Part shown: piece by piece, positions 881-26,560 of the stretch
Layout: each line of letters opens with the position of its first letter
Numbering within the stretch: the stretch's first letter is position 1
Assembly (NCBI RefSeq): GCF_000007985.2
Contig: NC_002939.5
Span: 990,001 to 1,022,000, forward strand
Direction: 5' to 3'
From: Geobacter sulfurreducens PCA
Lineage (GTDB): Bacteria; Desulfobacterota; Desulfuromonadia; Geobacterales; Geobacteraceae
Length of the DNA stretch: 32,000 nt
Made by a program: the position numbers and the translations under genes
The notes under the pieces: model-generated
Databases searched by the model: none
What the model was told of the DNA's origin: nothing
The model's input: only the letters and a program-made list of their open reading frames with translations

Positions 881-3199
881 ATGTCCGAGTCCGTGTCGAT
901 ATCAGTCCCCGCCGTTCTTCCGCTCTTTCCCCTCCGGGAGATCGTCGCCTTTCCCTATATGATCTTCCCGCTGTTCCTCAAGGACGACGAACTGACCGCG
1001 TTCGAGGACATGCTCGGCCACGAGCAGATGGTGGTGCTCGCCCGGACCCGGGAAGAGGCGGTGCCCGGCCAGACGCCACAGCTCTGCGAGATCGGCACCC
1101 TCTGCAAGGTGAACCAGATCTACCGGCTTCCCGAGGGGGGCGGCAAGGTGGTCCTGGAGGGGGTCGTGCGGGTACGGATCCTGGACGTGGCGGATACGCT
1201 TCCCCACATCCAGGTCCGCTGTGAGGTGGTCCACGAGTTCTTCGAGAAGTCAGTGGTTTCCGAAGCTCTGGTCCAGAGTCTCAACGCACTCCTCAAGATC
1301 GCTCTTTCGTATGGTCGCCCCCTGCCGGACGACGTCATGAAGATGATCGACCTGATCGACAACCCGGCCCGGCTGGCGGACCTGGTGGCCCTCTACGTGA
1401 ACCTCCCCCTGGACGAGCAGCAGCGGCTCCTGGAGACCGTGGACCCCCTTGAGCGGCTCAAGAAGGTGTACATGCACCTGACTGCCGAGGTGCAACGGCT
1501 CCAGGTGAAGGGCGAAGTGCAGGCCGAAGTGACCCGCCGGGTGGGGAAGAGCCAGAAGGAGTACCTGCTGCGGGAGCAGATGAAGCAGATCCAGGAGGAG
1601 CTTGGCGAGGAGGACCCGCGCGGCACCGAGATGACCGAGCTGCGGAGCCGGATCCAGAACGCCGGCATGCCCGACGAGGTCCGCAAGATCGCCGACAAGG
1701 AACTCAAGCGGCTGGACCGGATCAATCCTTCGTCCCCCGAATACACGGTGGCCCGCACCTATCTGGACTACCTGGCCGGCATGCCCTGGGGCAGGTCGAC
1801 GGCGGACAACCATGACATCAACCAGGCCGAGGCGGTGCTGGACGAAGACCACTACGACCTGAAGAAGGTCAAGGAACGGATTCTCGAATACCTGGCCGTC
1901 CGGACCCTGCGCGAGAGGATGAAGGGGCCGATCCTCTGCTTCGTGGGCCCGCCGGGGGTGGGAAAGACGAGCCTCGGCAAGTCCATCGCCCGGGCCCTGG
2001 GGCGGAAGTTCATCCGGATGTCCCTGGGGGGGATGCGGGACGAGGCGGAAATCCGCGGCCACCGCCGCACCTACATCGGCGCGCTTCCGGGCCGGATCAT
2101 TCAGGAGATCTTCCGCTGCGGCAGCAACAACCCGGTTTTCATGCTCGACGAGGTGGACAAGATCGGCCTCGATTTCCGAGGCGACCCGGCCAGCGCGCTC
2201 CTGGAGGTGCTCGACCCGGAACAGAACAGCACCTTCACCGACCACTATCTGGACGTGCCCTTCGATCTCTCCAACGTCATGTTCATCACCACGGCCAACC
2301 TGTTGGACCCGGTGCCGGCGGCCCTCAAGGACCGGATGGAGGTGATCCGGCTCTCGGGCTACACCGACGAGGAGAAGGAAAAGATCGCGGTCCGCTACCT
2401 CATCCCCAAGGAGGTTGAGGAAAACGGCCTCTCCGCCACCCCTCCCGCCTTTGCGTCTGCCGCTATTTACAAGATCATCGGCGACTACACCCGGGAGGCC
2501 GGGGTGCGCAACCTGCAGCGGAGCATCGCATCGGTCTGCCGCAAGGTGGCCAAGGAGATCACCCAGGGCAAGCCCCTGCGGGAGACCATCACCCCCGAGG
2601 TGGTGGAGGAGTTTCTGGGGCCCCGCACCTTCTTCAACGAGGTGGCGGCGGAACAGGATCGGGTCGGCGTGGTGACGGGGCTCGCCTGGACCGAGACCGG
2701 CGGGGACATTCTCTTCGTGGAGGCGACCCGCATGAAGGGGAAGCGGGATCTGATCCTGACCGGCAGCCTGGGGGACGTGATGAAGGAGTCGGCCCGGACC
2801 GCCCTTTCCTACGTGCGCGCCACCTGCGCGGACTGGGGGATCGACGAGGGGGCCTTCGAGGACAGCGATCTCCACATCCACGTGCCGGCCGGGGCTATTC
2901 CCAAGGACGGCCCGTCCGCCGGGCTCACCATGGTGACCGCCATCGTGTCGCTGCTGTCGGGACGGCCGGCCCGGCGCGACGTGGCCATGACCGGCGAGAT
3001 CAGCCTCACCGGCCGGGCGCTGGCCATCGGCGGCCTTAAGGAGAAGGTCCTGGCGGCCCGGCGGGCCGGGGTCAAGACCGTGGTGGCGCCCTCGCGCAAC
3101 CGGGAGAACCTTGAGGATATCCCCGACGACGTGAAGAACGAGCTTACCTTCATCTTTGTGGATGACGTGCATGAGGCGGTGGCTGCCGCGCTCCAGTGA
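881..3199 (+). CDS. lon: ATP-dependent Lon protease
   Basis: Long ORF with a Lon N-domain, Walker [10 protein letters not shown] and Walker B FMLDEVDK. Protease Ser context PKDGPSAG and Lys context GGLKEK. Start set at ATG 881 (AGAGGG about 10 nt upstream); GTG 851 is an alternative. Confidence 0.95.
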
Positions 3200-8878: not shown

Positions 8879-8986
8879 ATGGCAACCTGGAAGTGCGGAA
8901 CCTGCGGCTTCACCAAAGAGGGGCGCTGCAAGCCCCAGAAGTGTCCCCAGTGTCAGGAAAAGGGGAATTTCGAGAAGCAGGAGTGA
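8879..8986 (+). CDS. 35-aa rubredoxin-like / zinc-ribbon miniprotein
   Basis: Sequence MATWKCGTCGFTKEGRCKPQKCPQCQEKGNFEKQE. Two CxxC knuckles (WKCGTCGF and KCPQCQ) resemble the C-terminal rubredoxin domain of rubrerythrins. AAGGAG lies 9-14 nt upstream of ATG 8879. A strong terminator follows immediately. The ORF-track entry 8783..8986 is an upstream extension overlapping the M16 gene. Confidence 0.65.
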   Translation: MATWKCGTCGFTKEGRCKPQKCPQCQEKGNFEKQE

Positions 8987-8993
8987 TACTGAG

Positions 8994-9020
8994 AAAGGCG
9001 GCCCATGGGCCGCCTTTTTT
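8994..9020 (+). terminator. Rho-independent terminator ending the lon-to-miniprotein operon
   Basis: GGCGGCCC-atgg-GGGCCGCC stem followed by TTTTTT (9015-9020). Confidence 0.9.
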
Positions 9021-9143
9021 CTGTTGATGACGATAAGTTGACGTAGTCGGGATGTGAATTCATCCTGTTGCGTGTCGTGGGTAAGGTGTATAAATCCTGC
9101 GGATTATTGATGTTTGCGTACCCGGTGTATTTCTGCTGTATTT

Positions 9144-9159
9144 TGGTACCTTGTTTGCA
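9144..9159 (+). promoter_or_regulatory. Sigma54 (RpoN) promoter, TGGTAC-N5-TTGCA
   Basis: TGGTACCTTGTTTGCA has the exact -24 GG / -12 GC spacing of the TGGCAC-N5-TTGCA consensus. It ends 44 nt upstream of ATG 9203. Confidence 0.65.
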
Positions 9160-9202
9160 TTTTGAGGAGCCATCACACTTTTCAAGGAGGCACGTTACGC
9201 CT

Positions 9203-10474
9203 ATGAAAACAAAGGGCTGGGGTGCGCTGGCAGTGCTCCCCCTGGCGCTCGCACTCGCCGGAAACGTGGCGGCGGAAGAGGTCAAGGGGAAGGTTAAAAC
9301 CGTTTCGGTAAAGGCGGGGCAGATATCCCTCACAGTGGAGAGCAAAGGGGTGATGCTCTTCAGGGTGACCGACGGGACAACATTCGCCAATGCGGCATCG
9401 ATCAGGGAGATTCACGCCGATGATCTCCTGCAGGTCGATTATCGGGTTGACGGCTTCGACAACGTGGCAAAGGCCGTTGCCAAGGTCGTCGCCAAGCTGC
9501 CGGAAGGCGTCACCGCGATGGACACCAGGGAACTGGAGGCCCTGGTGGCCAAGGGAACGGAGGAGGGGGGATATCTGCTGATCGACTCCCGTCCCGCCGG
9601 AAAGTACAATGAGGCCCATATCCCGACGGCCGTATCGATTCCCTTTGCCGAGCTCGAAAAGAACCCCGCGCTTCTGACGGCGTCGAAAGACCGGCTTCTG
9701 GTGTTCTACTGCGGTGGCGTCACCTGAGTACTCAGTCCCAAATCCGCCGGTCTGGCGAAAAAATCGGGATACGAGAAGGTCCGCGTCTATCTGGACGGCG
9801 AACCGGAGTGGAAAAAGGCCGAACTGCCCCTGGAGTCGAGCCTGGCATTTGTTGAAAAGGGGAATATCGTTCTCATTGACCTGCGGTCCCCCGAGAAGGT
9901 GGCCGCGGGCCACATCCCCGGCGCCGTCGGCATCCCCGCCGCGGACCTCGCCGCCGCGCAGGCAAAATTTCCCGCCTACAGGGGAGCCCACCTGGTCTTC
10001 TATTCGGACAGTGCCGAGGACCTCAGCCAGGCCCTTGAACTGGCACGGGACTGGAATTACAAGAACGCTACCATTTTCCCGGGCGGGATCGGTGCCTGGC
10101 AGAAGGCCGGCAAGCACCTGAAGACCGGTGCCGCGGCCGCAACTGTCACATATGTGAAAAAGCTTGCCCCGGGCGAGGTCGGCACAGAGGACTTTCAGGC
10201 GGCGCTAAAGGACGGCAGGACGGTCGTCATCGACGCCCGTGCCCCCGGCGAGTTCGAAAAGGGACATTTCAAGGGAGCGGTCAATATCCCGGCGGAGGAG
10301 GCAGCGAAGCGGCTGGCCGAGATTCCCGCCGACCGGCCCGTACTCGTCCATTGCTCTACCGGCACCCGGGCAGAGATGGTCTACGACCTGGTGAAGGACA
10401 AAGGGTACAATCTCAAATACCTAAAGGCCGGCGTGGAGTTTGCCGCCGACGGAAGCTACACCATCAGCGAGTAG
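9203..10474 (+). CDS. Periplasmic triple-rhodanese protein, probable selenoprotein (in-frame UGA = Sec at codon 175)
   Basis: AGGAGG RBS and signal peptide MKTKGWGALAVLPLALALAGNVAA. ORFs 9068..9727 and 9899..10474 are in the same frame, with no other stop between 9728 and 9898. The 57 bridging codons complete rhodanese domain 1 (GYEKVRVYLDGEPEWKKA) and begin domain 2 (IVLIDLRSPEKVAAGHIPGAV). Domain 3 has a canonical CSTGTR loop. TGA lies in the domain-1 loop FYCGGVT-U-VLSPKSA. Confidence 0.75.
9735..9770 (+). promoter_or_regulatory. Candidate bacterial SECIS hairpin downstream of UGA 9725-9727
   Basis: Upper stem CGCC (9745-9748) pairs with GGCG (9754-9757), with apical loop GGUCU. The loop G begins 22 nt after the UGA. 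Lower stem GUCCC (9735-9739) pairs with GGGAU (9766-9770). The loop sequence and distance resemble the E. coli fdhF SECIS (GGUC loop about 18-19 nt after UGA). Confidence 0.55.
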
Positions 10475-10507
10475 CGTCTGGCGGGACAGTGCCGGTTTCG
10501 GAGGAGC

Positions 10508-10580
10508 AGGGGGCACCGGAAGGGCGGGACACCGGCGGCATGCCGGTTGTCTGTCGGCCGTTCCGGTGCCCCTTTCGTTT
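10508..10580 (+). terminator. Compound hairpin terminator between convergent genes
   Basis: 12-bp outer stem GGGGCACCGGAA (10510-10521) / TTCCGGTGCCCC (10561-10572) encloses an inner GC-rich hairpin. CTTTCGTTT follows on the plus strand. Confidence 0.6.
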
Positions 10581-10589
10581 ATCGCCCCC

Positions 10590-11495
10590 TCAGTATCCTA
10601 CCACGTGGAGTTCCACGCTGATCAGGTCGTTGACCAGGTGCATCCCCAGTTTTTCGAAGAGTTTGCCCGAGCCGTAGTTGACGTTCCAGCGGGTCCGGTC
10701 CAGGTCGAGGCATCCCTGGGCCGTGACGCCGCCGTCCTGCCGGGGTGCGATGAGGGCGGGACAGGCGACGGGGTGGCTCGTTCCCCTGATGGTGAGAGAG
10801 CCCGTGATCCGGTAGTTGGGGGTGCCGGGGGTGGCGTCCGGCAGCGGCTCGGCCCCGGTCAGGTCAAAGGTGGCGGTGGGGTGGCGGGCGGTGTCGAAGA
10901 AGTCGTCCGATTGCAGGTGGGCGACCAGCAGGCGGTTGAGGGCGCTCTCGGTCAGGTCGGCGTTGGCGATGGTGGTCATGTCGATGGTTACCCGCCCCCG
11001 GACGGGCACTCCCCGGGACACCGTCAGTTCGCCGCTTGCCACGGCGATGGTGCCGTGGTGTCGACCGTTGATATTACGGCCTGCCCAGTGGAGCATGCTT
11101 TTGGCCGGGTCGACCCGGTAGGTCCCGTCCCGGAGTGTCGGCGCCGGCATGGTCTGCCCGGGGGCTTCGTCCACCGGCAGGCCGGCGGCGCGCCATTCGT
11201 GGAGTCCGCCGGTAAAGGCCCGTACGTTGCGATAGCCTGCCGCCGCCAGCTTTTCCGCCGCCACCACCGCATCCCGGGAGCGGCCGCTCGACCCGTAAAC
11301 CACGATGGCCGCGTCCTTGTCGGCGGTTATGGCCTTCACCTGCTCCAGGAACGTCACCTCGTAGACGCAGGCATTACAGGCGCCTGCCACGTGACACTCC
11401 CCGTAGTACTCCTTGGGCAGCACATCGATGACGATCAGCGTTCTCTCGGTTAGCCCCGTACGCAGCTCTTCCCTGTCGATGGTGGCGTCTGCCAT
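10590..11495 (-). CDS. Rhodanese-domain / YceI-like domain fusion protein
   Basis: The N-terminal rhodanese fold (IVVYGSSGRSRDAVVAAEKLAAAGYRNVRAFTGGLHEWRAAGLPV) has Gly at the catalytic Cys position. The C-terminal roughly 180 aa are YceI-like (TYRVDPAKSMLHWAG ... LTIRGTSHPV ... VELHVVGY). No signal peptide. Confidence 0.8.
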   Translation of the reverse strand: MADATIDREELRTGLTERTLIVIDVLPKEYYGECHVAGACNACVYEVTFLEQVKAITADKDAAIVVYGSSGRSRDAVVAAEKLAAAGYRNVRAFTGGLHEWRAAGLPVDEAPGQTMPAPTLRDGTYRVDPAKSMLHWAGRNINGRHHGTIAVASGELTVSRGVPVRGRVTIDMTTIANADLTESALNRLLVAHLQSDDFFDTARHPTATFDLTGAEPLPDATPGTPNYRITGSLTIRGTSHPVACPALIAPRQDGGVTAQGCLDLDRTRWNVNYGSGKLFEKLGMHLVNDLISVELHVVGY

Positions 11496-11564
11496 GTCGC
11501 GCCCCTCACTTTGGTTGGGTGATGGCTAGATGCTACCACGGAGGGAGTGCTCGTCAAGGCGTGC

Positions 11565-12815
11565 TCAGAATGCCTGCTGGGCGCTGTCTCTTTTCTCCTT
11601 GGGCAGGAAGAGGTTCAGGAGCACGGCGGTGATGCCGCAGAGGCTCACCCCCTGGAGAGTCACCCAGCCGGCCTGGAGGGTCAGGCCGCCGATGCCGAAT
11701 ACAAGCACCAGCGACACGATTACCAGGTTGCGGGGGCGGTGCATGTCGACCCGGGCATGGATGAGGGTATTGAGGCCCACGGCGGCAATGCTGCCGAACA
11801 GCAGGATCATGATCCCTCCCATGACCGGGGTGGGAATGGACTGGAGCAGGGCGTTGAACTTGCCGAAAAAGGCCATGAGGATGGCGATGCAGGCGGCCCA
11901 GGTCATGATGACGGGGTTGTGGTTGCGGGTGATCATGACCGCGCCGGTCACCTCGGAATAGGTGGTCACCGGCGGACCACCGATGAGTCCGGCCACGCAG
12001 ACCGCCAGCCCGTCGCCGAGCATGGTACGGTGGAGCCCCGGCCGGGCGGTGTAGTCGCGCCCCGTAACGGCCCCGATGGCGATGATGTCGCCCACATGCT
12101 CGATGGCCGGGGCCAGCGCCACAGGGATCATGAAGAAGACCGCCGGCCAGCTCCACTGGGGTGCCACGAAGGGGGGCATGGCGAACCAGGGGGCCGCGGC
12201 GATGGTGCTGAAGTTCACCAGCCCCAGAAACGCCGAGAGGCTGTAGCCCACTGTAACCCCCGCAAGGATCGGTATGAGCCGGAAGATGCCCTTTGCCTTG
12301 AGGGCAATGACCACGGTGGTGGCAAGGGATACGCCGGCCACCAGGAGGGCCGTCTGGTAATCGACCAGCACTGCCTTGCCGTCGCCGGTCTTGCCCATGG
12401 CCAGGTTGACCGCCACGCCGGCGAGCCCCAGGCCGATGAGCATGATGATGGGGCCCACCACCACGGGGGGCATGATCCGGTGGATGAATGCGACGCCCCG
12501 CATCTTGATGAGCAGCGCCAGCATCAGATAGAGCGCGCCGGAGGCGAAGAGCCCCGACAGGGTGGCCGGGATGCCCCAGGTCTGGACGCTGTAGATGATC
12601 GGCGCGATGAACGCGAAGGAGGAGCCAAGGAAGATGGGGACCTTGCGCCCGGTGCACGCCTGGAAGATCAGGGTGCCGATGCCGGCGCCCAGCAGGGCCA
12701 TGCTCGGGTTGAGCCCGGTGAGGATCGGCACCAGCACGAGGGCGCCGAAGGCGACGAAGAGTATCTGCGCGCCGGCGATGGCCTGGCGCCAGACCGGTTC
12801 CTGGTGGTGGGTCAT
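11565..12815 (-). CDS. uraA: Uracil permease (NCS2 / uracil-xanthine permease family)
   Basis: 416-aa polytopic membrane protein with an NCS2-type sequence. It begins 18 nt after the end of upp on the same strand, the classic upp-uraA pairing. Confidence 0.85.
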   Translation of the reverse strand: MTHHQEPVWRQAIAGAQILFVAFGALVLVPILTGLNPSMALLGAGIGTLIFQACTGRKVPIFLGSSFAFIAPIIYSVQTWGIPATLSGLFASGALYLMLALLIKMRGVAFIHRIMPPVVVGPIIMLIGLGLAGVAVNLAMGKTGDGKAVLVDYQTALLVAGVSLATTVVIALKAKGIFRLIPILAGVTVGYSLSAFLGLVNFSTIAAAPWFAMPPFVAPQWSWPAVFFMIPVALAPAIEHVGDIIAIGAVTGRDYTARPGLHRTMLGDGLAVCVAGLIGGPPVTTYSEVTGAVMITRNHNPVIMTWAACIAILMAFFGKFNALLQSIPTPVMGGIMILLFGSIAAVGLNTLIHARVDMHRPRNLVIVSLVLVFGIGGLTLQAGWVTLQGVSLCGITAVLLNLFLPKEKRDSAQQAF

Positions 12816-12833: not shown

Positions 12834-13463
12834 TTATTTAGTGCCGAAGATCTTGTCCCCCGCGTCGCCGAGACCGGGGAGGATGTAGCCGTGTTCGTTG
12901 AGGCAGCGGTCAATGGCCGCCACGTAGATGTCCACATCGGGATGGGCGGCAGTGACCCGGGCGAGCCCCTCGGGTGCCGCCACCAGCGCCAGGACCCTGA
13001 TCTGGCGGCAACCGTTGCGCTTGAGCATGCTGATGGTTGCCTCCATGGAGCCGCCCGTGGCGAGCATCGGGTCGAGGATGACGGCCAGCCGTTCGTCAAG
13101 CTTGTCCACGAACTTCTCCAGATAGGTGTGTGCTTCGAGGGTCTCCTCGTTGCGGGCGAGTCCCACCACGCTCACCTTGGCGTTGGGGATCATGTCGAGG
13201 ACCCCGTCGAGCATGCCGATGCCGGCCCGCAGGATGGGCACCACCGTCACCTTCTTCCCCTTGATCTGTTCGATCTCCACCGGGTTGCCGTCCCAGCCGG
13301 TGATGGTCCGGACCTCCAGGGGGAAGTCGCCGCACGCCTCGTAGGCCAGCAACCGCGCCAGCTCGGCGGCAAGTTCCCGAAATTTCTTGGTGCTGATATC
13401 CGCCTCGCGCATGAGGCCGATCTTGTGCCTGACTAACGGGTGGGTAAGCTCGTGAACGCCCAT
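12834..13463 (-). CDS. upp: Uracil phosphoribosyltransferase
   Basis: 209 aa starting [16 protein letters not shown]-binding motif [12 protein letters not shown] and C-terminal [17 protein letters not shown]. Confidence 0.95.
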
Positions 13464-13582: not shown

Positions 13583-13612
13583 TTGACACTGCGCAACGCG
13601 GAAAGGTATCTT
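13583..13612 (+). promoter_or_regulatory. Candidate sigma70 promoter (TTGACA-N18-TATCTT) bracketed by a 7-bp inverted repeat
   Basis: TTGACA at 13583-13588 and TATCTT at 13607-13612. Inverted repeat CTTTCCG (13576-13582) / CGGAAAG (13599-13605) spans the -35 element and spacer. Confidence 0.35.
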
Positions 13613-13655
13613 GAGCGGGTACCGAACGGAGCCACGGAAGGGGAGCGGGGGCGGC

Positions 13656-14285
13656 ATGAGCAAGGACAAGGACGAGCGGAAGCGACCGCAGCTGCGGTTG
13701 GTGGTGAACAACGTGGAGAAGCGGTCGGGACGTCCGGTTGCGGGGGAAGATGATTTCATAACCCTGGACGAACTCATCCTGCGGCGCCACGAGTTTCGTG
13801 GTCACTTCTATGCCGGGGTGGGGCGTCTTCAGGAAAAGGCGTACCGCTCTCTGGAGCGCTACCTGGAGCGAAAGGGGTGGGCCTACGGTCTGGATCCCAT
13901 GCACGGGCGACTCATGGTCATCCCTGCCGGCCTGGTCTGCCCGGAGGCGATCGTGCCCGACAGCTCCCAGCAGGACGAAGTGCTCGTTTTTGCCGGCGAA
14001 GACCTGACCGGCGTGGGGCTCTGCCTCTCCCTGGAGATGATTATCCCCTTCTGGAGCGATGATGACGCCGTCATGGAGGACGCGCTGCTCTCGGCGCCGA
14101 TTCTCCCCTACGGGATGCTCTTCCTGGAGGAGAACCGGCAGGACGGTTACCTGGACCTCATCTATCGCGTGGCGTTGCCCCTCTATCCGCCCGCGCCGAC
14201 GGTGCGCGTACTTGACAAACTCTTTGCCGTGGCGCGGACCGAATTGGCCGAAACCCTCCGCACCCTGGCCGATTTTTCCGACTGA
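13656..14285 (+). CDS. Hypothetical protein (possibly YbjN-like fold; basic N-terminal tail)
   Basis: 209-aa ORF from ATG 13656 with coding-like composition and no motif I can name confidently. TTG 13611 would overlap the candidate -10 element and precede the predicted transcription start. Confidence 0.55.
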   Translation: MSKDKDERKRPQLRLVVNNVEKRSGRPVAGEDDFITLDELILRRHEFRGHFYAGVGRLQEKAYRSLERYLERKGWAYGLDPMHGRLMVIPAGLVCPEAIVPDSSQQDEVLVFAGEDLTGVGLCLSLEMIIPFWSDDDAVMEDALLSAPILPYGMLFLEENRQDGYLDLIYRVALPLYPPAPTVRVLDKLFAVARTELAETLRTLADFSD

Positions 14286-15928: not shown

Positions 15929-15986
15929 TTAAAACCTCCCACTGTAAACAAATGATGAATAAATTGTCGCTTGAGAGCTATAGAAT

Positions 15987-16013
15987 TTATCGGCTGTCGT
16001 AAGAAAATGTTTA
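15987..16013 (-). promoter_or_regulatory. Sigma28 (FliA) promoter, perfect TAAA-N15-GCCGATAA
   Basis: The minus strand reads TAAA (16013-16010), then 15 nt, then GCCGATAA (15994-15987). It lies about 60 nt upstream of the MCP ATG at 15928, which has a GGGAGG RBS. Confidence 0.7.
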
Positions 16014-16178
16014 GTAAAAAAATAAACAACTAATTCATTCTTCAAGATACTTGAATGCCTCCGGAAAGTACTCCATTCCGCTAAGGCCGGAGCAGGCTGT
16101 CGGCCCATTCTGTGCATCGAACCCGACAGTGAGTACGCGGTGCCTGTTTCAGCGGCAGCCGCTACGAGGAGGCTCGCC

Positions 16179-16874
16179 ATGCTGGTCATGATCCAGAACG
16201 ATTCCGAAGTGCCGCCGGGAATCTTCGGTGATTTTCTGCGGGAGGAGCGCATTCCCTTCAGCCTTGTGCATCCCTGCGCCGGCGATCCGCTGCCGCTGCC
16301 GGCCGAGGTGACGGCGGCCATCGTGCTGGGCGGCGCCATGGGGGTCCACGACACGGAGAAACATCCGTTTCTCGAAACGGTCAAGGCGTTCATCGGTGGC
16401 TGCGTGGCGGCCGGCCGCCCCTACCTGGGCATCTGTCTCGGCGGGCAGCTCCTCGCCGACGTGTTCGGGGCGCCGGTCACCTCCGGTGCCGACGGCGAGA
16501 AAGGGACTTTCCCCGTTGACCTGACCGTCGAGGGGGAGCGCGATCCGCTCTTTGCCGGCATTCCCCGGCGTTTCATCACGTTCCAGTGGCATGACGACAC
16601 CTTTGCCGTTCCCACCGGCGGCGTCCTGCTGGCCTCGTCCGCCGTCTGCCTCCGCCAGGCGTTCCGGGTGGGCGACCGGGCATGGGGGCTCCAGTTCCAC
16701 CCGGAGGTGAACCGGGAGATCGTTGGCGCCTGGGCCCGGTGGAGCGGGGATACGGCACCGGACGCGGAGAGCTTCCTGGCGGCTTTTGCCGCTGCCGAGA
16801 CGGAGTATCGGGCGGCGTCCCGGCTGATGCTGGGCAATTTTCTCGTGGCTGCGGGGATGAAGCGAGCCCGATAA
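16179..16874 (+). CDS. Class I glutamine amidotransferase (GATase1, GMP-synthase-like domain only)
   Basis: GAGGAGG RBS. Nucleophile elbow GICLGGQLL and His/Glu context LQFHPEV. 231 aa from ATG 16179. Confidence 0.8.
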   Translation: MLVMIQNDSEVPPGIFGDFLREERIPFSLVHPCAGDPLPLPAEVTAAIVLGGAMGVHDTEKHPFLETVKAFIGGCVAAGRPYLGICLGGQLLADVFGAPVTSGADGEKGTFPVDLTVEGERDPLFAGIPRRFITFQWHDDTFAVPTGGVLLASSAVCLRQAFRVGDRAWGLQFHPEVNREIVGAWARWSGDTAPDAESFLAAFAAAETEYRAASRLMLGNFLVAAGMKRAR

Positions 16875-18504: not shown

Positions 18505-18588
18505 ACATTGTGCGGAAAGGAGGAGAAGCTGAACGTCGTTGGGAGGACATTCGTGAATGCAATTATTACTGACAAAGGAGAAGCATCA

Positions 18589-19341
18589 ATGAAAATGACG
18601 ATGAAGATTCTTTCCCTGACCACAGCACTCGTTACCATGATCACCGGCGTTGCCCTGGCGACCCCCTCCACCCAGGTCTGGATTCCGTCCACCGATGTGC
18701 AGGCCTTCGGCACGGCCCACCTCGGCATCGACAATTACCTGAGGGTCTCCAAGAATCCCGACGGCAGCCGCCAGCCCAACACCTACGACCTGGGCCTGAC
18801 CTTCGGCCTTCTCCCCTTCGAGAAGCTCCAGATGGAAGCGGGCGTAGACTACATGGTGAATGCAACCTCCCCCGGCGACAGCCATCCCTTCTACCTCAAC
18901 GTGAAGCTGGCAACCCCCGAGGGGTCGCTCTTCGGGTACTCGCCCGCCATTGCCGTAGGTGCCTACAACATCGGCTTCAAGGAAGACGTCTCTGACCAGA
19001 ACATCGTGTACGGGCTCGTCGCCAAGACCCTGCCGGTTGTGGGGAGACTGTCGGCGGGCTACTTCGTCGGGAACAGTGCGGTGCTGAACGACGCGAACGG
19101 CGAGAACGACAACCATGGCGTGCTCCTTTCCTGGGACCGTACCATGAGCGAAATCTCCGACAAGCTGTGGGTGGCGGTCGACTACCAGGGGAGCGACAGC
19201 TTCATGGGAGCCCTGAACTTCGGTGTTTCCTGGGCCTTCTCCAAGAACGTATCGCTCCTCGTGGGCTACGACATCTACAACAGCTCGGTAACGGGCGGGA
19301 AGAATACCTTCACCACCCAGCTCGACATCAATTTCCCTTAA
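18589..19341 (+). CDS. Putative outer-membrane beta-barrel protein, first gene of the glnK-amtB operon
   Basis: AAAGGAG RBS and signal peptide MKMTMKILSLTTALVTMITGVALA. Alternating hydrophobic/polar strands rich in Y/G/N/S/D, with an aromatic near the C-terminus (LDINFP). 250 aa. Function unknown. Confidence 0.55.
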   Translation: MKMTMKILSLTTALVTMITGVALATPSTQVWIPSTDVQAFGTAHLGIDNYLRVSKNPDGSRQPNTYDLGLTFGLLPFEKLQMEAGVDYMVNATSPGDSHPFYLNVKLATPEGSLFGYSPAIAVGAYNIGFKEDVSDQNIVYGLVAKTLPVVGRLSAGYFVGNSAVLNDANGENDNHGVLLSWDRTMSEISDKLWVAVDYQGSDSFMGALNFGVSWAFSKNVSLLVGYDIYNSSVTGGKNTFTTQLDINFP

Positions 19342-21468: not shown

Positions 21469-22215
21469 ATGGCAAATGCGCTTGCGAAGTACATAGCAGA
21501 AAAGGACCCTGTCGAGGGCGAGCTGCTGGAGCTTCTTGCATTCAACGAGAAGATGGCCGAGCTCGGCCGGATGGCGGCCGGTGTGGTGCATGAGCTGAAC
21601 ACGCCTCTGTCGGTCATCGTTTCGGCCACCCAGATGATCCTCCGCGAAGAGGGCCTGCCCGATTTCGTACGCGAGATGGTGGAGCGGGTCAACCAGGAAG
21701 CCCACCGGCTGTCTGACATGACCAAGGGGGTCCTTTCCTTTACCCGCCGGGACGTAAGCGACCACCAGGAAGCGGACGTGAACCAGGTGCTCCGGGAGGC
21801 CATGACCCTGTTGCGTTACGAGGCCCATAAACGCTCTATCGCCGTCATCGAAGATCTGGATTACCGGCTCCCCTTCATTGCCGCCGACGCCAACCGGGCG
21901 AAGCAGGTTATCATAAACCTGGTCATGAACGCCCTCCAGGCCATGGGAGAGGGCGGAAAGCTCTTCATTCGCACCAGCCAGAACGGGGAGGGGGGCGTAA
22001 CGGTGCAGGTGACGGATACGGGTCCCGGCATCCCGGCTGAATTGCTGGGGCATATCTTCACCCCCTTTTTCACCACCAAAGAGCCGGGAGAGGGCACCGG
22101 GCTGGGCCTGTTCATTACCCGCAAGCTCATGGAGTCGGTGGGCGGGGCCATCGCGGTGGAAAGCACGGTGGGGGAGGGGACATCCTTTACGCTCACCTTT
22201 GTCGCAGCCGAGTGA
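21469..22215 (+). CDS. Soluble histidine kinase without a recognisable sensor domain (HisKA + HATPase_c only)
   Basis: 248 aa with no TM segment. H-box AAGVVHELNTPL, N-box NLVMNALQA, G1 DTGPGI, G2 GEGTGLGL. It resembles what I recall as GnfK of Geobacter sulfurreducens (unverified). Confidence 0.85.
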   Translation: MANALAKYIAEKDPVEGELLELLAFNEKMAELGRMAAGVVHELNTPLSVIVSATQMILREEGLPDFVREMVERVNQEAHRLSDMTKGVLSFTRRDVSDHQEADVNQVLREAMTLLRYEAHKRSIAVIEDLDYRLPFIAADANRAKQVIINLVMNALQAMGEGGKLFIRTSQNGEGGVTVQVTDTGPGIPAELLGHIFTPFFTTKEPGEGTGLGLFITRKLMESVGGAIAVESTVGEGTSFTLTFVAAE

Positions 22216-22272: not shown

Positions 22273-22331
22273 GTCGCGTGAAACGCGGCTGTTTGCTATA
22301 ACCCCTCAAGCACCATTTCCGGGAGAATGCC

Positions 22332-23117
22332 ATGACCGCCACGTATCTCGCCGTTGCCGCCGAGGCTGCCCGCCGGGCCGGACAACTCCAGCGCGAGCGT
22401 CTCTGGACCGACCACGACATCCGCTACAAGGGGGAGATCGATCTGGTCACCGAGGTTGATCAGGCCAGCGAGGAGCTGATCGTCGCCGCCATCCGCGCCG
22501 CGTTCCCCGACCATGACATCCTGGCCGAGGAACAGACCAGGGAGACGGGCACCTCCCGGTATCGCTGGATCGTGGACCCCCTGGACGGCACCACCAACTA
22601 TGCCCACGGCTTTCCGTGGTTCTGCGTCTCCATTGCCCTTGAAATCGACGGAGAGGTGACCGTCGGCGTGGTCTACCAACCGGTTATGGACGAGCTTTTC
22701 TCCGCCGTGAAGGGGGAGGGTGCCTTCGTGAACGGCAGTCCGATCCACGTCTCGTCGCGGGCTCCCCTGAAGCAGTGCCTGCTGGCTACGGGCTTCCCCT
22801 ATGACCGGACCCGTGACAATGAAAACAACTTCGACAACTTCTACCGCTTCCAGTTTGCCGCCCGCGCCGTGCGCCGAGCCGGCGCCGCGGCCCTCGACCT
22901 GGCCTGTGTTGCCGCCGGCAGGCTTGACGGCTACTGGGAGCTCAAGCTCAAGCCGTGGGACGTGGCCGCCGGCTTTCTGCTGGTGACCGAAGCGGGGGGG
23001 CGGGTCACCACTCACGACGGCGCATCCTTCTCCGTGTCCGAACATCGCATCCTGGCTTCCAACGGTCTGATCCACGACGAAATGCAGAGGGTGCTGGCGG
23101 CGGGAGACACCCTCTAA
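22332..23117 (+). CDS. suhB: Inositol monophosphatase family protein (SuhB-like)
   Basis: Motifs ILAEE, WIVDPLDGTTNY, WDVAAG. 261 aa. Confidence 0.9.
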   Translation: MTATYLAVAAEAARRAGQLQRERLWTDHDIRYKGEIDLVTEVDQASEELIVAAIRAAFPDHDILAEEQTRETGTSRYRWIVDPLDGTTNYAHGFPWFCVSIALEIDGEVTVGVVYQPVMDELFSAVKGEGAFVNGSPIHVSSRAPLKQCLLATGFPYDRTRDNENNFDNFYRFQFAARAVRRAGAAALDLACVAAGRLDGYWELKLKPWDVAAGFLLVTEAGGRVTTHDGASFSVSEHRILASNGLIHDEMQRVLAAGDTL

Positions 23118-23151
23118 CCTGTCGTTTTCCCATATTGACTGTATTTGCCCA

Positions 23152-23181
23152 TTGACGACTGTGCTGTTCCGGGCGTATATC
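23152..23181 (+). promoter_or_regulatory. Candidate sigma70 promoter (TTGACG-N18-TATATC) for the PilZ gene
   Basis: Sequence match only; lies 24 nt upstream of ATG 23205. Confidence 0.3.
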
Positions 23182-23204
23182 CTCTGCTTCCCGTGGAGAA
23201 TGCA

Positions 23205-23939
23205 ATGGCAGAACGTAATGAAGAGTCGATGAAAACCGAAGAGCCTGTCCGCCTGGTATTCGTAGTAGAGGGCCGGGTGGCCGTGGCGCCGTATCTTGAT
23301 ACGGTGCGGAGCGAAGTGGAGGACGTGACGGTCGTCTCCTCCATCGGGGAACTTTTTCCCCTCATGGCGCGGGAGGCGTTCAACGGTATCCTCCTGGACG
23401 TTCCCACCCTGGTTCGGGCGACCAGCACGGAAAAGGCTGCCCTCTACGATCTGATCCAGGTGTTTCCCACGCTCAGGGTGAAATGGGATTCCCGCTCTGC
23501 CACGGTGCGGGCGCTTTTCTACGATCGCGTCCCCGGTCCCGGCGCCGGGCTCGGGAGCTTCGTCCGCCAGGTCTGCGCCTGTTTCGTCCCCCGCATCATC
23601 CGCCGGAGGGACCGGGTTGCCGCTCACCTGAACGTGATGGTTTCGGAAACCCCGGCGTTCAGCCCGGAAGAGGTGACGCGCACGGTCAGCCTCAATCTCT
23701 CGCTCGACGGGTGCTTTCTCATTGCCGTCGATCCCTGGCCCCAGGGCGCCCGGCTCTGGCTGCGCATGCTGGAATTCGACGACCAGACACCCATCGCGGC
23801 GGAGGTCCGCTGGCGCAAGCCGTGGGGGGTGTCGCCGGGCATAGCCGGCGCCGGGGTCAGATTTCTTGAGCTGACGGATGAGCAGAGGAAGTGTGTTGTT
23901 GATTTGTGTGAGCAGAATAGGGTGGTAGGCGGTATCTGA
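23205..23939 (+). CDS. PilZ-domain c-di-GMP receptor with N-terminal receiver-like (degenerate) domain
   Basis: GGAGA RBS. The C-terminal PilZ motifs RxxxR (RRRDR, residues 133-137) and (D/N)xSxxG (NLSLDG, 164-169) are intact. The N-terminal roughly 100 aa look like a CheY fold (GILLDVPT) but lack the acidic pair (VFVVEGRV). Confidence 0.8.
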   Translation: MAERNEESMKTEEPVRLVFVVEGRVAVAPYLDTVRSEVEDVTVVSSIGELFPLMAREAFNGILLDVPTLVRATSTEKAALYDLIQVFPTLRVKWDSRSATVRALFYDRVPGPGAGLGSFVRQVCACFVPRIIRRRDRVAAHLNVMVSETPAFSPEEVTRTVSLNLSLDGCFLIAVDPWPQGARLWLRMLEFDDQTPIAAEVRWRKPWGVSPGIAGAGVRFLELTDEQRKCVVDLCEQNRVVGGI

Positions 23940-24095
23940 AGCTGGCGTATTATTCTCTGCAGCCGGTTGGTATATATTTTTACAAAAAATAATCAAAATC
24001 TGATTTACTAATGTCTATCAAATTGGTAAGGTATCTTACGGTTTGAAGGCGTTTCGGGCAGCAACGAGCGTAACCCACAACAGAATACGGCTTAA

Positions 24096-24198
24096 CTTAT
24101 CAAGAGCGACCGAGGGACAGGCCCGGTGACGTCGCGGCAACCTCCCCATGGGGGGAAGGTGCCAATTCCTGCGAGACCGACAGGTTTCGGGAGATAAG
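24096..24198 (+). promoter_or_regulatory. SAM-I (S-box) riboswitch aptamer
   Basis: CUUAUCAAGAGCGACCGAGGGACAGGCCCGGUGACGUCGCGGCAACC...AAGGUGCCAAUUCCUGCGAG...GAGAUAAG matches the S-box consensus. P1 is CUUAUC/GAUAAG. The GGUGA kink-turn, GGCAACC and GUGCCAAUUCC elements are present. Confidence 0.9.
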
Positions 24199-24226
24199 GA
24201 AGAGCGTGACACCTCACGGTGAATCG

Positions 24227-24258
24227 AATCCTCTTCCGCACCCCGGAAGGGGATTTTT
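24227..24258 (+). terminator. Expression-platform terminator of the SAM riboswitch
   Basis: The stem includes CUUCCG (24233-24238) paired with CGGAAG (24244-24249) and is extended by flanking pairs, followed by AUUUUU. It ends 17 nt before ATG 24275. Confidence 0.8.
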
Positions 24259-24274
24259 CATTGTGGAGGAAACC

Positions 24275-25408
24275 ATGAACATCGCGACGCAGGCAGCACA
24301 GATCGGTCTCGACTGGGATACCCGCACCGGGGCGGTGACGGTACCCATCTACCAGACGGCAACCTTCCGGCATCCGGGATTGGGCCAGAGCACGGGCTAC
24401 GATTATTCCCGCTCCGGCAACCCCACCCGCCAGGCCCTGGAAGAGGGGATCGCCCGGCTGGACGGCGGCGCCAGGGGATTTGCCTATGCCTCGGGCATGG
24501 CTGCCATCGCCAATCTCCTCCTGCTCTTCAAGAGCGGCGACCACCTGGTGGTGACCGAGGACCTCTACGGCGGCACCTGCCGTCTCTTCGACCAGATTCT
24601 GGTCCAGTACGGCCTCTCGTTCACCTATGTGGACACGAGCGATCCTGAGGCGGTGCGGGACGCCATCCGTCCCGAGACCAGGGCCCTGTTCGTGGAGTCC
24701 CTCACCAACCCGCTCCTCAAGGTCGCCGATATCGCGGCCCTCTCGACCCTCTGCCGCGAGCGGGGGCTGCTTTGTATCGTGGACAACACCTTCCTCACTC
24801 CCTATCTTCTGCGGCCCCTGGATCTCGGGGCCGACATCACGGTCTACAGCGGCACCAAGTACCTGTCCGGGCACAACGACACGGTGTCGGGGCTGGTCGT
24901 GGTCAAGGAGCCGGCCCTGGCCGAGCGGGTCTACTTCCTCCAGAATTCCGTGGGCGCAGTGCTGGGGCCCCAGGATGCGTGGCTCACCATCCGGGGGATG
25001 AAGACCCTGTCGGTGCGACTGGACCGCCAGCAGGAAAACGCCGGCCGGATCGCCGAATGGCTGGCGCGGCATCCGCGGGTGCCACGGGTCTTCTATCCGG
25101 GGCTGCCGGGCCATCCGGGCCACGAACTGCTGGCGCGCCAGGCCCGGGGCTTCGGCGCCATGATCGCTTTCGAGGTGGATGATAAGGCTCTGGTGGAGCG
25201 TTTGCTCCTCAAGACGGAATTGATATCATTCGCGGAAAGCCTCGGCGGCGTTGAAACCCTGATCACCTTTCCCCAGGTTCAGACCCATGCGGACATCCCG
25301 CCGGAGGTTCGGGAGCGGCTCGGCATCAATGACGTGCTCCTGCGCCTTTCGGTGGGGATCGAGGATGCGGACGACCTTATCGCCGACCTGTCCCGGGCAT
25401 TCGCGTAA
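24275..25408 (+). CDS. Cys/Met-metabolism PLP enzyme (cystathionine gamma-synthase / beta-lyase family)
   Basis: GGAGGA RBS, 377 aa. PLP-lysine context YSGTKYLSGHND and N-terminal PIYQTATF. The exact activity (MetB vs MetC vs MetZ) cannot be told from the sequence by eye. Confidence 0.9.
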   Translation: MNIATQAAQIGLDWDTRTGAVTVPIYQTATFRHPGLGQSTGYDYSRSGNPTRQALEEGIARLDGGARGFAYASGMAAIANLLLLFKSGDHLVVTEDLYGGTCRLFDQILVQYGLSFTYVDTSDPEAVRDAIRPETRALFVESLTNPLLKVADIAALSTLCRERGLLCIVDNTFLTPYLLRPLDLGADITVYSGTKYLSGHNDTVSGLVVVKEPALAERVYFLQNSVGAVLGPQDAWLTIRGMKTLSVRLDRQQENAGRIAEWLARHPRVPRVFYPGLPGHPGHELLARQARGFGAMIAFEVDDKALVERLLLKTELISFAESLGGVETLITFPQVQTHADIPPEVRERLGINDVLLRLSVGIEDADDLIADLSRAFA

Positions 25409-25423
25409 GAAATGGAGGACATC

Positions 25424-26560
25424 ATGAAATTCGGCACCCGCATCATCCATACGGGCCGTGAGATCGATCCGACCACCGGAGCGCTCTCGGTTCCCATTTA
25501 CCAGACGTCCACCTATCGGCAGGAATCGGTGGACCATTTCGGCAAGTACGATTACGCCCGCTCGGACAACCCCACCCGCGAGGCCCTTGAGGAAACCGTG
25601 GCCCAGCTGGAGAACGGGACGCGGGGATTCGCCTTCGCCTCGGGCATGGCCGCCATCTCCTCCACGCTGCTCCTGTTCTCGCCCGGCGATCACCTGGTGG
25701 TCTGCGAGGATGTCTATGGCGGTACCTTCCGGGCGCTGACCCAGCTTTTCAGCCGGCTGGGGGTCGAGTCCACCTTCGTGGACGCCACGGACACGGCCGC
25801 CATTGAGGCGGCCTTCCGCCCGAACACCAAGGGCCTCTATCTGGAGACCCCCTCCAATCCACTCATGAAGATCACCGACCTGGCCGCCGCGGCCCGCCTG
25901 GCCCGGGAGAGGGGGGCCATCACCCTGGTGGACAACACGTTCATGACTCCCTACCTGCAGCGGCCCCTGGACCTGGGCTGCGACGTGGTGCTCCACAGCG
26001 GGACCAAGTTCCTGAACGGCCACAGCGATGTGGTCTGCGGCTTTGCCGTGGTGAGGGACCCGGAGTTGGGGCAGCGGATCAGGTTCATCCAGAATGCCTT
26101 CGGCGCCATCCTGGGCCCCCAGGATTCATGGCTCGTGCTGCGGGGTATCAAGACCCTGCGGGTCCGGATGGAGGAAAGCCAGGCCGGGGCGGTCAAAATT
26201 GCCAACTGGCTGGCTGGGGAAAAACGGGTGAGCCGGGTTTTCTATCCCGGACTCCCCGATCATCCGGGTCACGATATCCATGGCCGGCAGTCGTCGGGCC
26301 CCGGCGCGGTCCTGTCGTTCACCCTGGATACCGTTGAAACCACCCGCCGCCTGCTGGAGGGGATGCGTCTGGCTGCCTTTGCCGTGAGCCTCGGCGGGGT
26401 GGAAAGCATCATCTCCTATCCCGCCAGGATGTCCCACGCGGCCATGCCGCCGGCCGAGCGGGCCGCCCGGGGGATCGGCGATACCCTGGTACGGCTTTCC
26501 GTGGGGCTTGAGGACGCCGACGACCTCCTGGCCGAGATGGACCGCCTGATCAACGGCTGA
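25424..26560 (+). CDS. Second Cys/Met-metabolism PLP enzyme (paralogue of the upstream gene)
   Basis: PLP-lysine context HSGTKFLNGHSD and N-terminal PIYQTSTY. Start placed at ATG 25424 (GGAGG 5 nt upstream); ATG 25412 is an alternative. Confidence 0.9.
   Translation: MKFGTRIIHTGREIDPTTGALSVPIYQTSTYRQESVDHFGKYDYARSDNPTREALEETVAQLENGTRGFAFASGMAAISSTLLLFSPGDHLVVCEDVYGGTFRALTQLFSRLGVESTFVDATDTAAIEAAFRPNTKGLYLETPSNPLMKITDLAAAARLARERGAITLVDNTFMTPYLQRPLDLGCDVVLHSGTKFLNGHSDVVCGFAVVRDPELGQRIRFIQNAFGAILGPQDSWLVLRGIKTLRVRMEESQAGAVKIANWLAGEKRVSRVFYPGLPDHPGHDIHGRQSSGPGAVLSFTLDTVETTRRLLEGMRLAAFAVSLGGVESIISYPARMSHAAMPPAERAARGIGDTLVRLSVGLEDADDLLAEMDRLING

Follow-up and report, generated by a model that had tools for sequence, protein, structure and literature searches.

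Does the single in-frame UGA in a rhodanese gene of Geobacter sulfurreducens PCA end one protein and precede another, or is it translated within a single product? The question is raised by positions 9203–10474 of a 32,000-nucleotide (nt) stretch of contig NC_002939.5 (positions 990,001 to 1,022,000; hereafter the window, with positions counted from its first letter), where two open reading frames (ORFs), 9068..9727 and 9899..10474, lie in the same frame. We consider it very probable that 9203–10474 is one gene, encoding an exported 423-residue protein with three rhodanese domains, in which the UGA is decoded as selenocysteine (Sec) at residue 175 through a selenocysteine insertion sequence (SECIS) hairpin.

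One reading frame with a lone UGA codon

Translation of 9068–10474 meets only one internal stop, the TGA at 9725–9727, which is codon 175 counted from the ATG at 9203. A preliminary description of this DNA, made from the letters alone, had joined the two ORFs into a 423-aa product with UGA at codon 175, and had placed this codon in the loop C170-G-G-V-T-U175-V-L-S as part of a Cys-x4-Sec pair. Translation confirms the shared frame, the lone stop between the ATG and 10474, the length of the product and the sequence of the loop. The peptide given there for the 57 codons following the TGA is also in frame, but as quoted it has 58 letters and includes the Val of the GTG at 9899.

The existence and identity of this selenoprotein are already known, predicted and annotated in RefSeq. 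The product matches WP_010941598.1 residue for residue, including U175-V-L-S, over the approximately 400 residues printed in supplement 3 of PMC12013277, and RefSeq holds this entry with U. Two reviews (PMC9312934, PMC13188914) list it among the selenoproteins, as does the deep-Sep supplement of PMC12013277; the reviews name Zhang & Gladyshev 2005 as the source of the prediction, made with bSECISearch. The statement in the preliminary description that rhodanese selenoproteins had been predicted earlier is borne out by this very protein, and the recoded UGA proved recognisable, correctly, from sequence and without tools. In the literature searched, we found no description of three results reported below, namely the covariation in the SECIS, the invariant position 175 and the census of neighbourhoods, and the residual value of the analysis lies in these. 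WP_010941598.1 is, moreover, one of few exported bacterial selenoproteins.

Standard gene callers do split the gene, as had been anticipated. Strain YM18 has it as two entries, BBA69473.1 (174 aa, hypothetical) and BBA69474.1 (248 aa, ‘PspE’), and exact copies of the 174-aa N-terminal piece and of a 191-aa C-terminal piece occur on 141 and 150 contigs, respectively (NCBI, JGI, ENA, Logan). Homologues are divided likewise, and false ‘hypothetical 174-aa’ and ‘PspE-like’ fragments are numerous in databases (YM18, Logan/JGI/ENA and dozens of metagenome homologues).

Homologues carry cysteine or UGA at position 175

A protein search over 5.8 billion sequences returned 364 relatives, the best 120 of which were aligned. 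Among these 120, no full-length homologue ends at the UGA column: all 92 (382–455 aa) carry Cys there, within the family motif FYCGGxxC/U-xLSPKSA. The other 28 (~247–252 aa) start 1–2 residues past the column and represent split gene calls; a search with the N-terminal 174 aa gave 20 matches. The DNA of relatives places TGA at exactly this column in 73 other loci (60 distinct, spanning 40–89% protein identity) and TGC or TGT in 10.

A hairpin after the UGA is constrained only where the UGA is present

A short hairpin lies within the coding sequence (CDS) after the UGA, its stem starting 18 nt and its GGUCU apical loop 22 nt downstream, the latter as stated in the preliminary description. bSECISearch looks for a stem-loop soon after the UGA with a G in the apical loop, and the hairpin at 9745–9757 fits this description in distance and loop. 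It resembles the SECIS of Escherichia coli fdhF, likewise an in-CDS hairpin soon after the UGA with a GGUC-containing apical loop, but differs in its short stem of 4 base pairs (bp), which is extended to 5 bp in relatives with GGCGG. Its loop presumably sits about one codon farther from the UGA than that of fdhF.

We compared the hairpin between loci in an ungapped alignment of 60 distinct segments, each comprising the TGA and 60 nt. Each of the 60 sequences can form the four core pairs. Two of these pairs are dictated by two Ala codons, and the other two involve synonymous third positions: at pair 24–30, 59 sequences have C-G and one has U-G; pair 21–33 (9745–9757) is C-G in 45, U-A in 11, U-G in four and C-A in none, a covariation with a Fisher p of 4e-9 without phylogenetic correction. 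The third-base entropy is 0–0.12 bit at Ala+7, Gly+8 and Leu+9, compared with 1.3–1.9 bits at other four-fold degenerate codons, with the TGA forms frozen at GCC (61/62), GGU (48/48) and CUG (47/47), respectively. These positions vary freely in the Cys forms, and both third-position pairs are present in only two of nine distinct Cys-form loci as against 60 of 60 TGA loci (p = 3e-8). The hairpin is kept with covariation where TGA is present; constraint at the RNA level is found only in sequences with the TGA, and its distance from this codon is that of a typical bacterial SECIS. Other clades of the family keep the stem and have the loop AGUAA, GGUAA, AAGAU, AGGAA or C-GNC-G. A possible lower helix (Table 1) is part of the minimum-energy fold, but it is weakly supported: across loci only 74% of cells are paired, and its register is ambiguous.

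Two TGC-carrying loci (L011 and L012, at ~3175–3190) have a 5-bp hairpin at the SECIS site, in which the two strands have changed places (GGCG...CGCC) and the loop reads GCUAU or GCGAU. This is the sole exception to the Sec-specific pattern, and it could be a chance product of GC-rich Ala codons or a relic.

The organism is a documented Sec user, as the preliminary description had assumed of Geobacter-type bacteria in general: G. sulfurreducens is listed as such with SelD and FdhA (PMC1794560), and it makes MccSep, an experimentally characterised periplasmic selenoprotein of which U325 mutants were tested and on which its sulfur respiration depends (PMC13510729).

A translated UGA could nonetheless be read otherwise than as Sec, or not as Sec alone. 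Near-cognate read-through would insert Trp or Cys, the Sec machinery itself might insert Cys when selenium is scarce, and regulated termination could yield 174-aa and 423-aa products according to selenium supply. Such a mixture of products is compatible with the sequence, and the short 4-bp core in G. sulfurreducens might lower the efficiency of insertion. On the other hand, the alternation of Cys and UGA together with a hairpin bearing G and U in its loop is the signature of Sec insertion, the hairpin constraint is confined to TGA-carrying genes, and a periplasmic Sec protein is made by this very organism, so we regard non-Sec or mixed recoding as improbable.

The reading frame is under purifying selection past the UGA

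The closest relative (L003), whose protein is 85–89% identical, retains the TGA at a synonymous divergence (dS) of ~0.7. Against L003, the codons preceding the TGA have a ratio of nonsynonymous to synonymous divergence (dN/dS) of 0.096 and those following it one of 0.085, so that purifying selection is the same on both sides; over the 57 codons from the TGA to the GTG at 9899 the ratio is 0.069 at a dS of 0.58. The downstream coding signal is therefore undecayed, and retention of the TGA together with low dN/dS beyond it indicates that the region past the TGA is translated in the same frame.

These values bear directly on the view that the TGA is a true stop, leaving either a truncated pseudogene or two genes, one for a 174-aa secreted fragment and another for a rhodanese protein of 191 or 248 aa. 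That view agrees with the YM18 annotation, the split products on 141–150 contigs and the division of homologues by gene callers. It would, however, cut through the active-site loop of rhodanese domain 1 and leave the C-terminal piece without a signal peptide; it leaves the low dN/dS of the 57 codons before the GTG unexplained, and inspection by eye revealed neither a Shine-Dalgarno-like purine run nor an ATG just 5′ of the GTG. With Cys aligned to the TGA in all 92 full-length homologues and the TGA itself persisting across 60 distinct loci, a true stop is very unlikely. A sequencing or assembly error hiding a TGC or TGT codon deserves practically no credence, since the split products recur on more than 140 contigs of independent assemblies, dozens of metagenome loci have the TGA, as do L003–L005 (85–89% identical), RefSeq holds the protein with U, and we found no evidence in support of an error. 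Those refuting conditions named in the preliminary description that were put to the test all turned out in favour of Sec.

Several points weigh against translation of 9203–10474 as a Sec protein, or against the function proposed for it below. The hairpin alone is short and energetically unexceptional (z = +0.5 for 66 nt and −1.5 for 23 or 48 nt), so its significance is drawn from the comparison between loci, and Rfam returned no SECIS family match, whether its gathering thresholds or a limit of E <= 10 was applied. The RNA evidence is limited to the two third-position pairs and the conservation of the loop, the Ala codons forcing the rest. Within the 32,000-nt window there is no selA, selB, selC or selD and no tRNA gene, and for the Sec machinery we rely on the identity of the organism and on the literature; the literature searched contained no experimental incorporation of selenium into WP_010941598.1. 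Finally, the G. sulfurreducens locus has no sulfur-metabolism neighbours except a convergent gene for a rhodanese-YceI fusion, so that the function is deduced from relatives of 50–58% identity.

Domain architecture and active sites

The Rhodanese family (PF00581) matches the protein in three stretches (Pfam search, E = 1.4e-46; score 157.5 bits, cut-off 22.2). Sequence matches in the Protein Data Bank (PDB) place the domains at residues ~107–214, 214–304 and 329–412, and the UGA thus falls within domain 1. Residues ~25–95, which precede them, have no Pfam or NCBIfam match. The WP_010941598.1 protein is predicted to be periplasmic. The features of the gene and protein are collected in Table 1.

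Table 1. Coordinates of the features in and around the Sec-rhodanese gene
Feature	Position in window	Strand	Basis or remark
Shine-Dalgarno-like AAGGAGG	9184..9190	+	12 nt 5′ of ATG 9203; from sequence
Complete selenoprotein CDS	9203..10474	+	423 aa + TAG; ATG 9203; single frame with lone internal TGA
Predicted Sec-type (export) signal peptide MKTKGWGALAVLPLALALAGNVAA, then EE	9203..9274	+	No lipobox Cys, no twin arginine; from sequence
N-terminal all-beta domain, ~residues 25–95	9275..9487	+	Strands 25–94 in the AF2 model of homologue P0003
Rhodanese domain 1, spanning the UGA, loop C170-G-G-V-T-U175	9509..9832	+	PDB matches 107–214 (3nhv, YgaP); NF045694 103–215
TGC, Cys170, canonical rhodanese catalytic position	9710..9712	+	Nearly invariant in family; Gly in one homologue
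UGA codon 175, very probably read as Sec	9725..9727	+	Cys in homologues, TGA in other loci
Possible lower SECIS helix, GUCCC 9735–9739 with GGGAU 9766–9770	9735..9770	+	Weakly supported; in minimum-energy fold
Bacterial SECIS core, stem CGCC/GGCG, apical loop GGUCU (9749–9753)	9745..9757	+	18–30 nt past UGA
Rhodanese domain 2, catalytically inactive, Ser268 for Cys (FYSDSAED)	9833..10114	+	PDB matches 214–304; loop comparison
Rhodanese domain 3, canonical site HC384STGTR, Cys codon 10352–10354	10175..10408	+	Best Pfam stretch, residues 329–412
Probable bidirectional terminator: long GC-rich hairpin, then UUUCGUUUAUC	10506..10585 (approximate)	.	Between Sec gene and convergent rhodanese-YceI gene

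Alignment of the active-site strands gives LLVFY-C-GGVT-U-VLS for domain 1, HLVFY-S-DSAE-D-LSQ for domain 2 and VLVH-C-STGT-R-AEM for domain 3. Sec175 lies five residues past the canonical Cys170, and its counterpart in domain 3 is Arg. The assignment of domain 2 as inactive and domain 3 as Cys-active, already made in the preliminary description, agrees with the sequence and with conservation in the family (Ser268; HC384STGTR), the H, C, T, G and R of domain 3 being invariant in the 28 Sec-form C-terminal pieces. In the alignment of the Cys forms, the invariant cysteines are those at position 175 and at C384; C170 is only nearly so.

An AlphaFold2 (AF2) model was made of P0003, a Cys homologue 57% identical to the window protein, with a predicted local distance difference test (pLDDT) score of 92.2 and a predicted template modelling (pTM) score of 0.83. 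The model begins with an N-terminal helix of low pLDDT (residues 3–19), followed by the folded domains, namely a beta domain (residues 25–94, pLDDT >90), three rhodanese domains and a C-terminal beta hairpin. A Foldseek comparison of the model with the PDB returned multi-rhodanese proteins only (1yt8, 6mxv, EanB and YnjE), at a template modelling (TM) score of ~0.2.

By folding, the Sec gene in G. sulfurreducens is monocistronic, with a hairpin terminator on either side; the downstream region 10475–10590 folds at −65.3 kcal/mol (z = −3.4). A simple promoter/terminator scan flagged neither hairpin, but folding shows both clearly.

Relation to known rhodanese systems

The profile of TsoB (NF045694) matches residues 103–215, in rhodanese domain 1, with 74.8 bits (E = 3.7e-21). 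In review tables (PMC9312934, PMC13188914), TsoB is a rhodanese/DsbD fusion-like selenoprotein with the motif UxxxxU. The spacing of this motif equals that of C170-x4-U175, and the two would align with one another. The match of the profile to domain 1 suggests that both loop positions may be redox-active in this rhodanese subtype. Membership of TsoB itself was rejected, the score falling far below the cut-off of 805 and covering only those residues; the window protein also has no DsbD-like membrane domain, contains one Sec only and has another architecture.

Sud of Wolinella succinogenes is a periplasmic polysulfide-sulfur transferase with a rhodanese fold, which is linked to polysulfide respiration and is a single-domain Cys protein. 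The window protein differs from it in having three rhodanese domains, a beta domain and Sec. The best PDB sequence and fold matches are the multi-rhodanese proteins YnjE of E. coli and 1yt8, a four-domain thiosulfate sulfurtransferase of Pseudomonas aeruginosa. Similarity to these is limited, with a global TM-score of ~0.2 and an identity of 15–18%, and they lack the Sec, the CGGxxC/U loop and the N-terminal beta domain.

Gene neighbourhoods of the Sec-rhodanese genes

We took a census of the neighbourhoods of 63 distinct Sec loci. A DsrE-like gene lies directly upstream in 20 of them and a gene for an HdrB-like CCG protein upstream in 10, while a conserved ORF of ~139 aa without a family match lies directly downstream in 21 and YeeE/Sulf_transp genes downstream in 19. 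Three have a molybdopterin oxidoreductase gene as immediate neighbour, with the full molybdopterin-4Fe4S-NrfD operon only in L007 and L008.

In these two metagenome loci (L007, 3253–8293; L008, 219–5259) the Sec-rhodanese gene stands between a molybdopterin oxidoreductase gene and genes for a 4Fe-4S protein and NrfD, a Psr/Phs-like order that may parallel the link of Sud to polysulfide respiration; the G. sulfurreducens locus differs in having no such operon. Further downstream, L007 has genes for TusA and for a pyridine-nucleotide disulfide oxidoreductase, as well as a weak match to DsrE.

Around the Sec-rhodanese gene of L006 (3502–8500), and in about 20 similar loci (L018–L049), a recurrent cluster is seen in the order 4Fe-4S, HdrB-like CCG, DsrE, Sec-rhodanese, ~139-aa ORF and two YeeE/Sulf_transp genes. 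The ~139-aa ORF has no Pfam match, and its longest copy has a Pro/Ala-rich tail. L006 also has selB (SelB winged-helix domains) and a YqeC-family gene at 11496–12750 (−), 4.7–5.6 kb downstream of the Sec-rhodanese gene.

Proposed mechanism and function

In the standard bacterial mechanism, SelB carrying Sec-tRNA(Sec) would bind the hairpin with its GGUCU loop in the mRNA, inside the CDS. Once inserted, Sec175 would work together with Cys170 of the same loop in domain 1; by way of a selenenylsulfide, the pair may carry or resolve persulfide, polysulfide or selenium species. Domain 3 would offer a second, conventional persulfide site at Cys384.

The DsrE/YeeE clusters and molybdopterin oxidoreductase neighbours found in relatives point to periplasmic sulfane-sulfur handling, and the DsrE, YeeE, Hdr-like and Psr-like neighbourhoods supply a concrete functional hypothesis. 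As the best-supported role, the protein would carry or reduce sulfane sulfur in the periplasm, and perhaps selenium as well; the preliminary description had suggested a periplasmic carrier of sulfur or selenium, which is plausible.

The position-175 residue is the sole invariant Cys/Sec of domain 1, Cys170 being replaced by Gly in one homologue, and we therefore also considered that the catalytic centre of domain 1 might be the residue five past the canonical Cys, the family then constituting a periplasmic C-x4-U selenenylsulfide redox rhodanese. We hold this proposal only tentatively and think it rather unlikely. If it were true, polysulfide, thiosulfate or selenium species would be reduced or resolved and not passively carried, the activity would feed YeeE-type importers or molybdopterin/MccSep-type reductases, and the protein could be a missing periplasmic partner in the elemental-sulfur respiration of G. 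sulfurreducens.

Other features of the window

The convergent neighbour at 10590–11495 (−) encodes a 301-aa fusion of a rhodanese with a YceI-like domain. The same pairing occurs in L003, a rhodanese-YceI-like gene also lies downstream in L082, and the fusion may be functionally linked to the Sec gene. Directly upstream of the Sec gene, 8879–8986 (+) is a 35-aa rubredoxin-like zinc-ribbon ORF (CxxC...CxxC) that scores 26.0 bits with PF21349, just below the cut-off of 26.5, and is called in L003 too. It is followed by a strong intrinsic terminator at 8991–9020 (−21.8 kcal/mol, z = −4.1).

Elsewhere in the window, 5892–7388 matches an M16 peptidase exactly (AAR34254.2 / Q74EN5_GEOSL), as does 12834–13463 a uracil phosphoribosyltransferase (AAR34260.1). 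A SAM (S-box) riboswitch at 24094–24200 (+; 91.4 bits) lies directly 5′ of two tandem genes, 24206–25408 and 25412–26560, which encode Cys/Met-metabolism pyridoxal phosphate (PLP) enzymes, an ordinary methionine-pathway arrangement. Long ORFs without a Pfam match are found at 22296–23996 (−), 18508–19341 (+), 13611–14285 (+) and 15929–16393 (−), and some long ORFs of the window may be shadow ORFs of a GC-rich genome. A histidine kinase fragment at 21469–22215 (+), for example, overlaps minus-strand ORFs.

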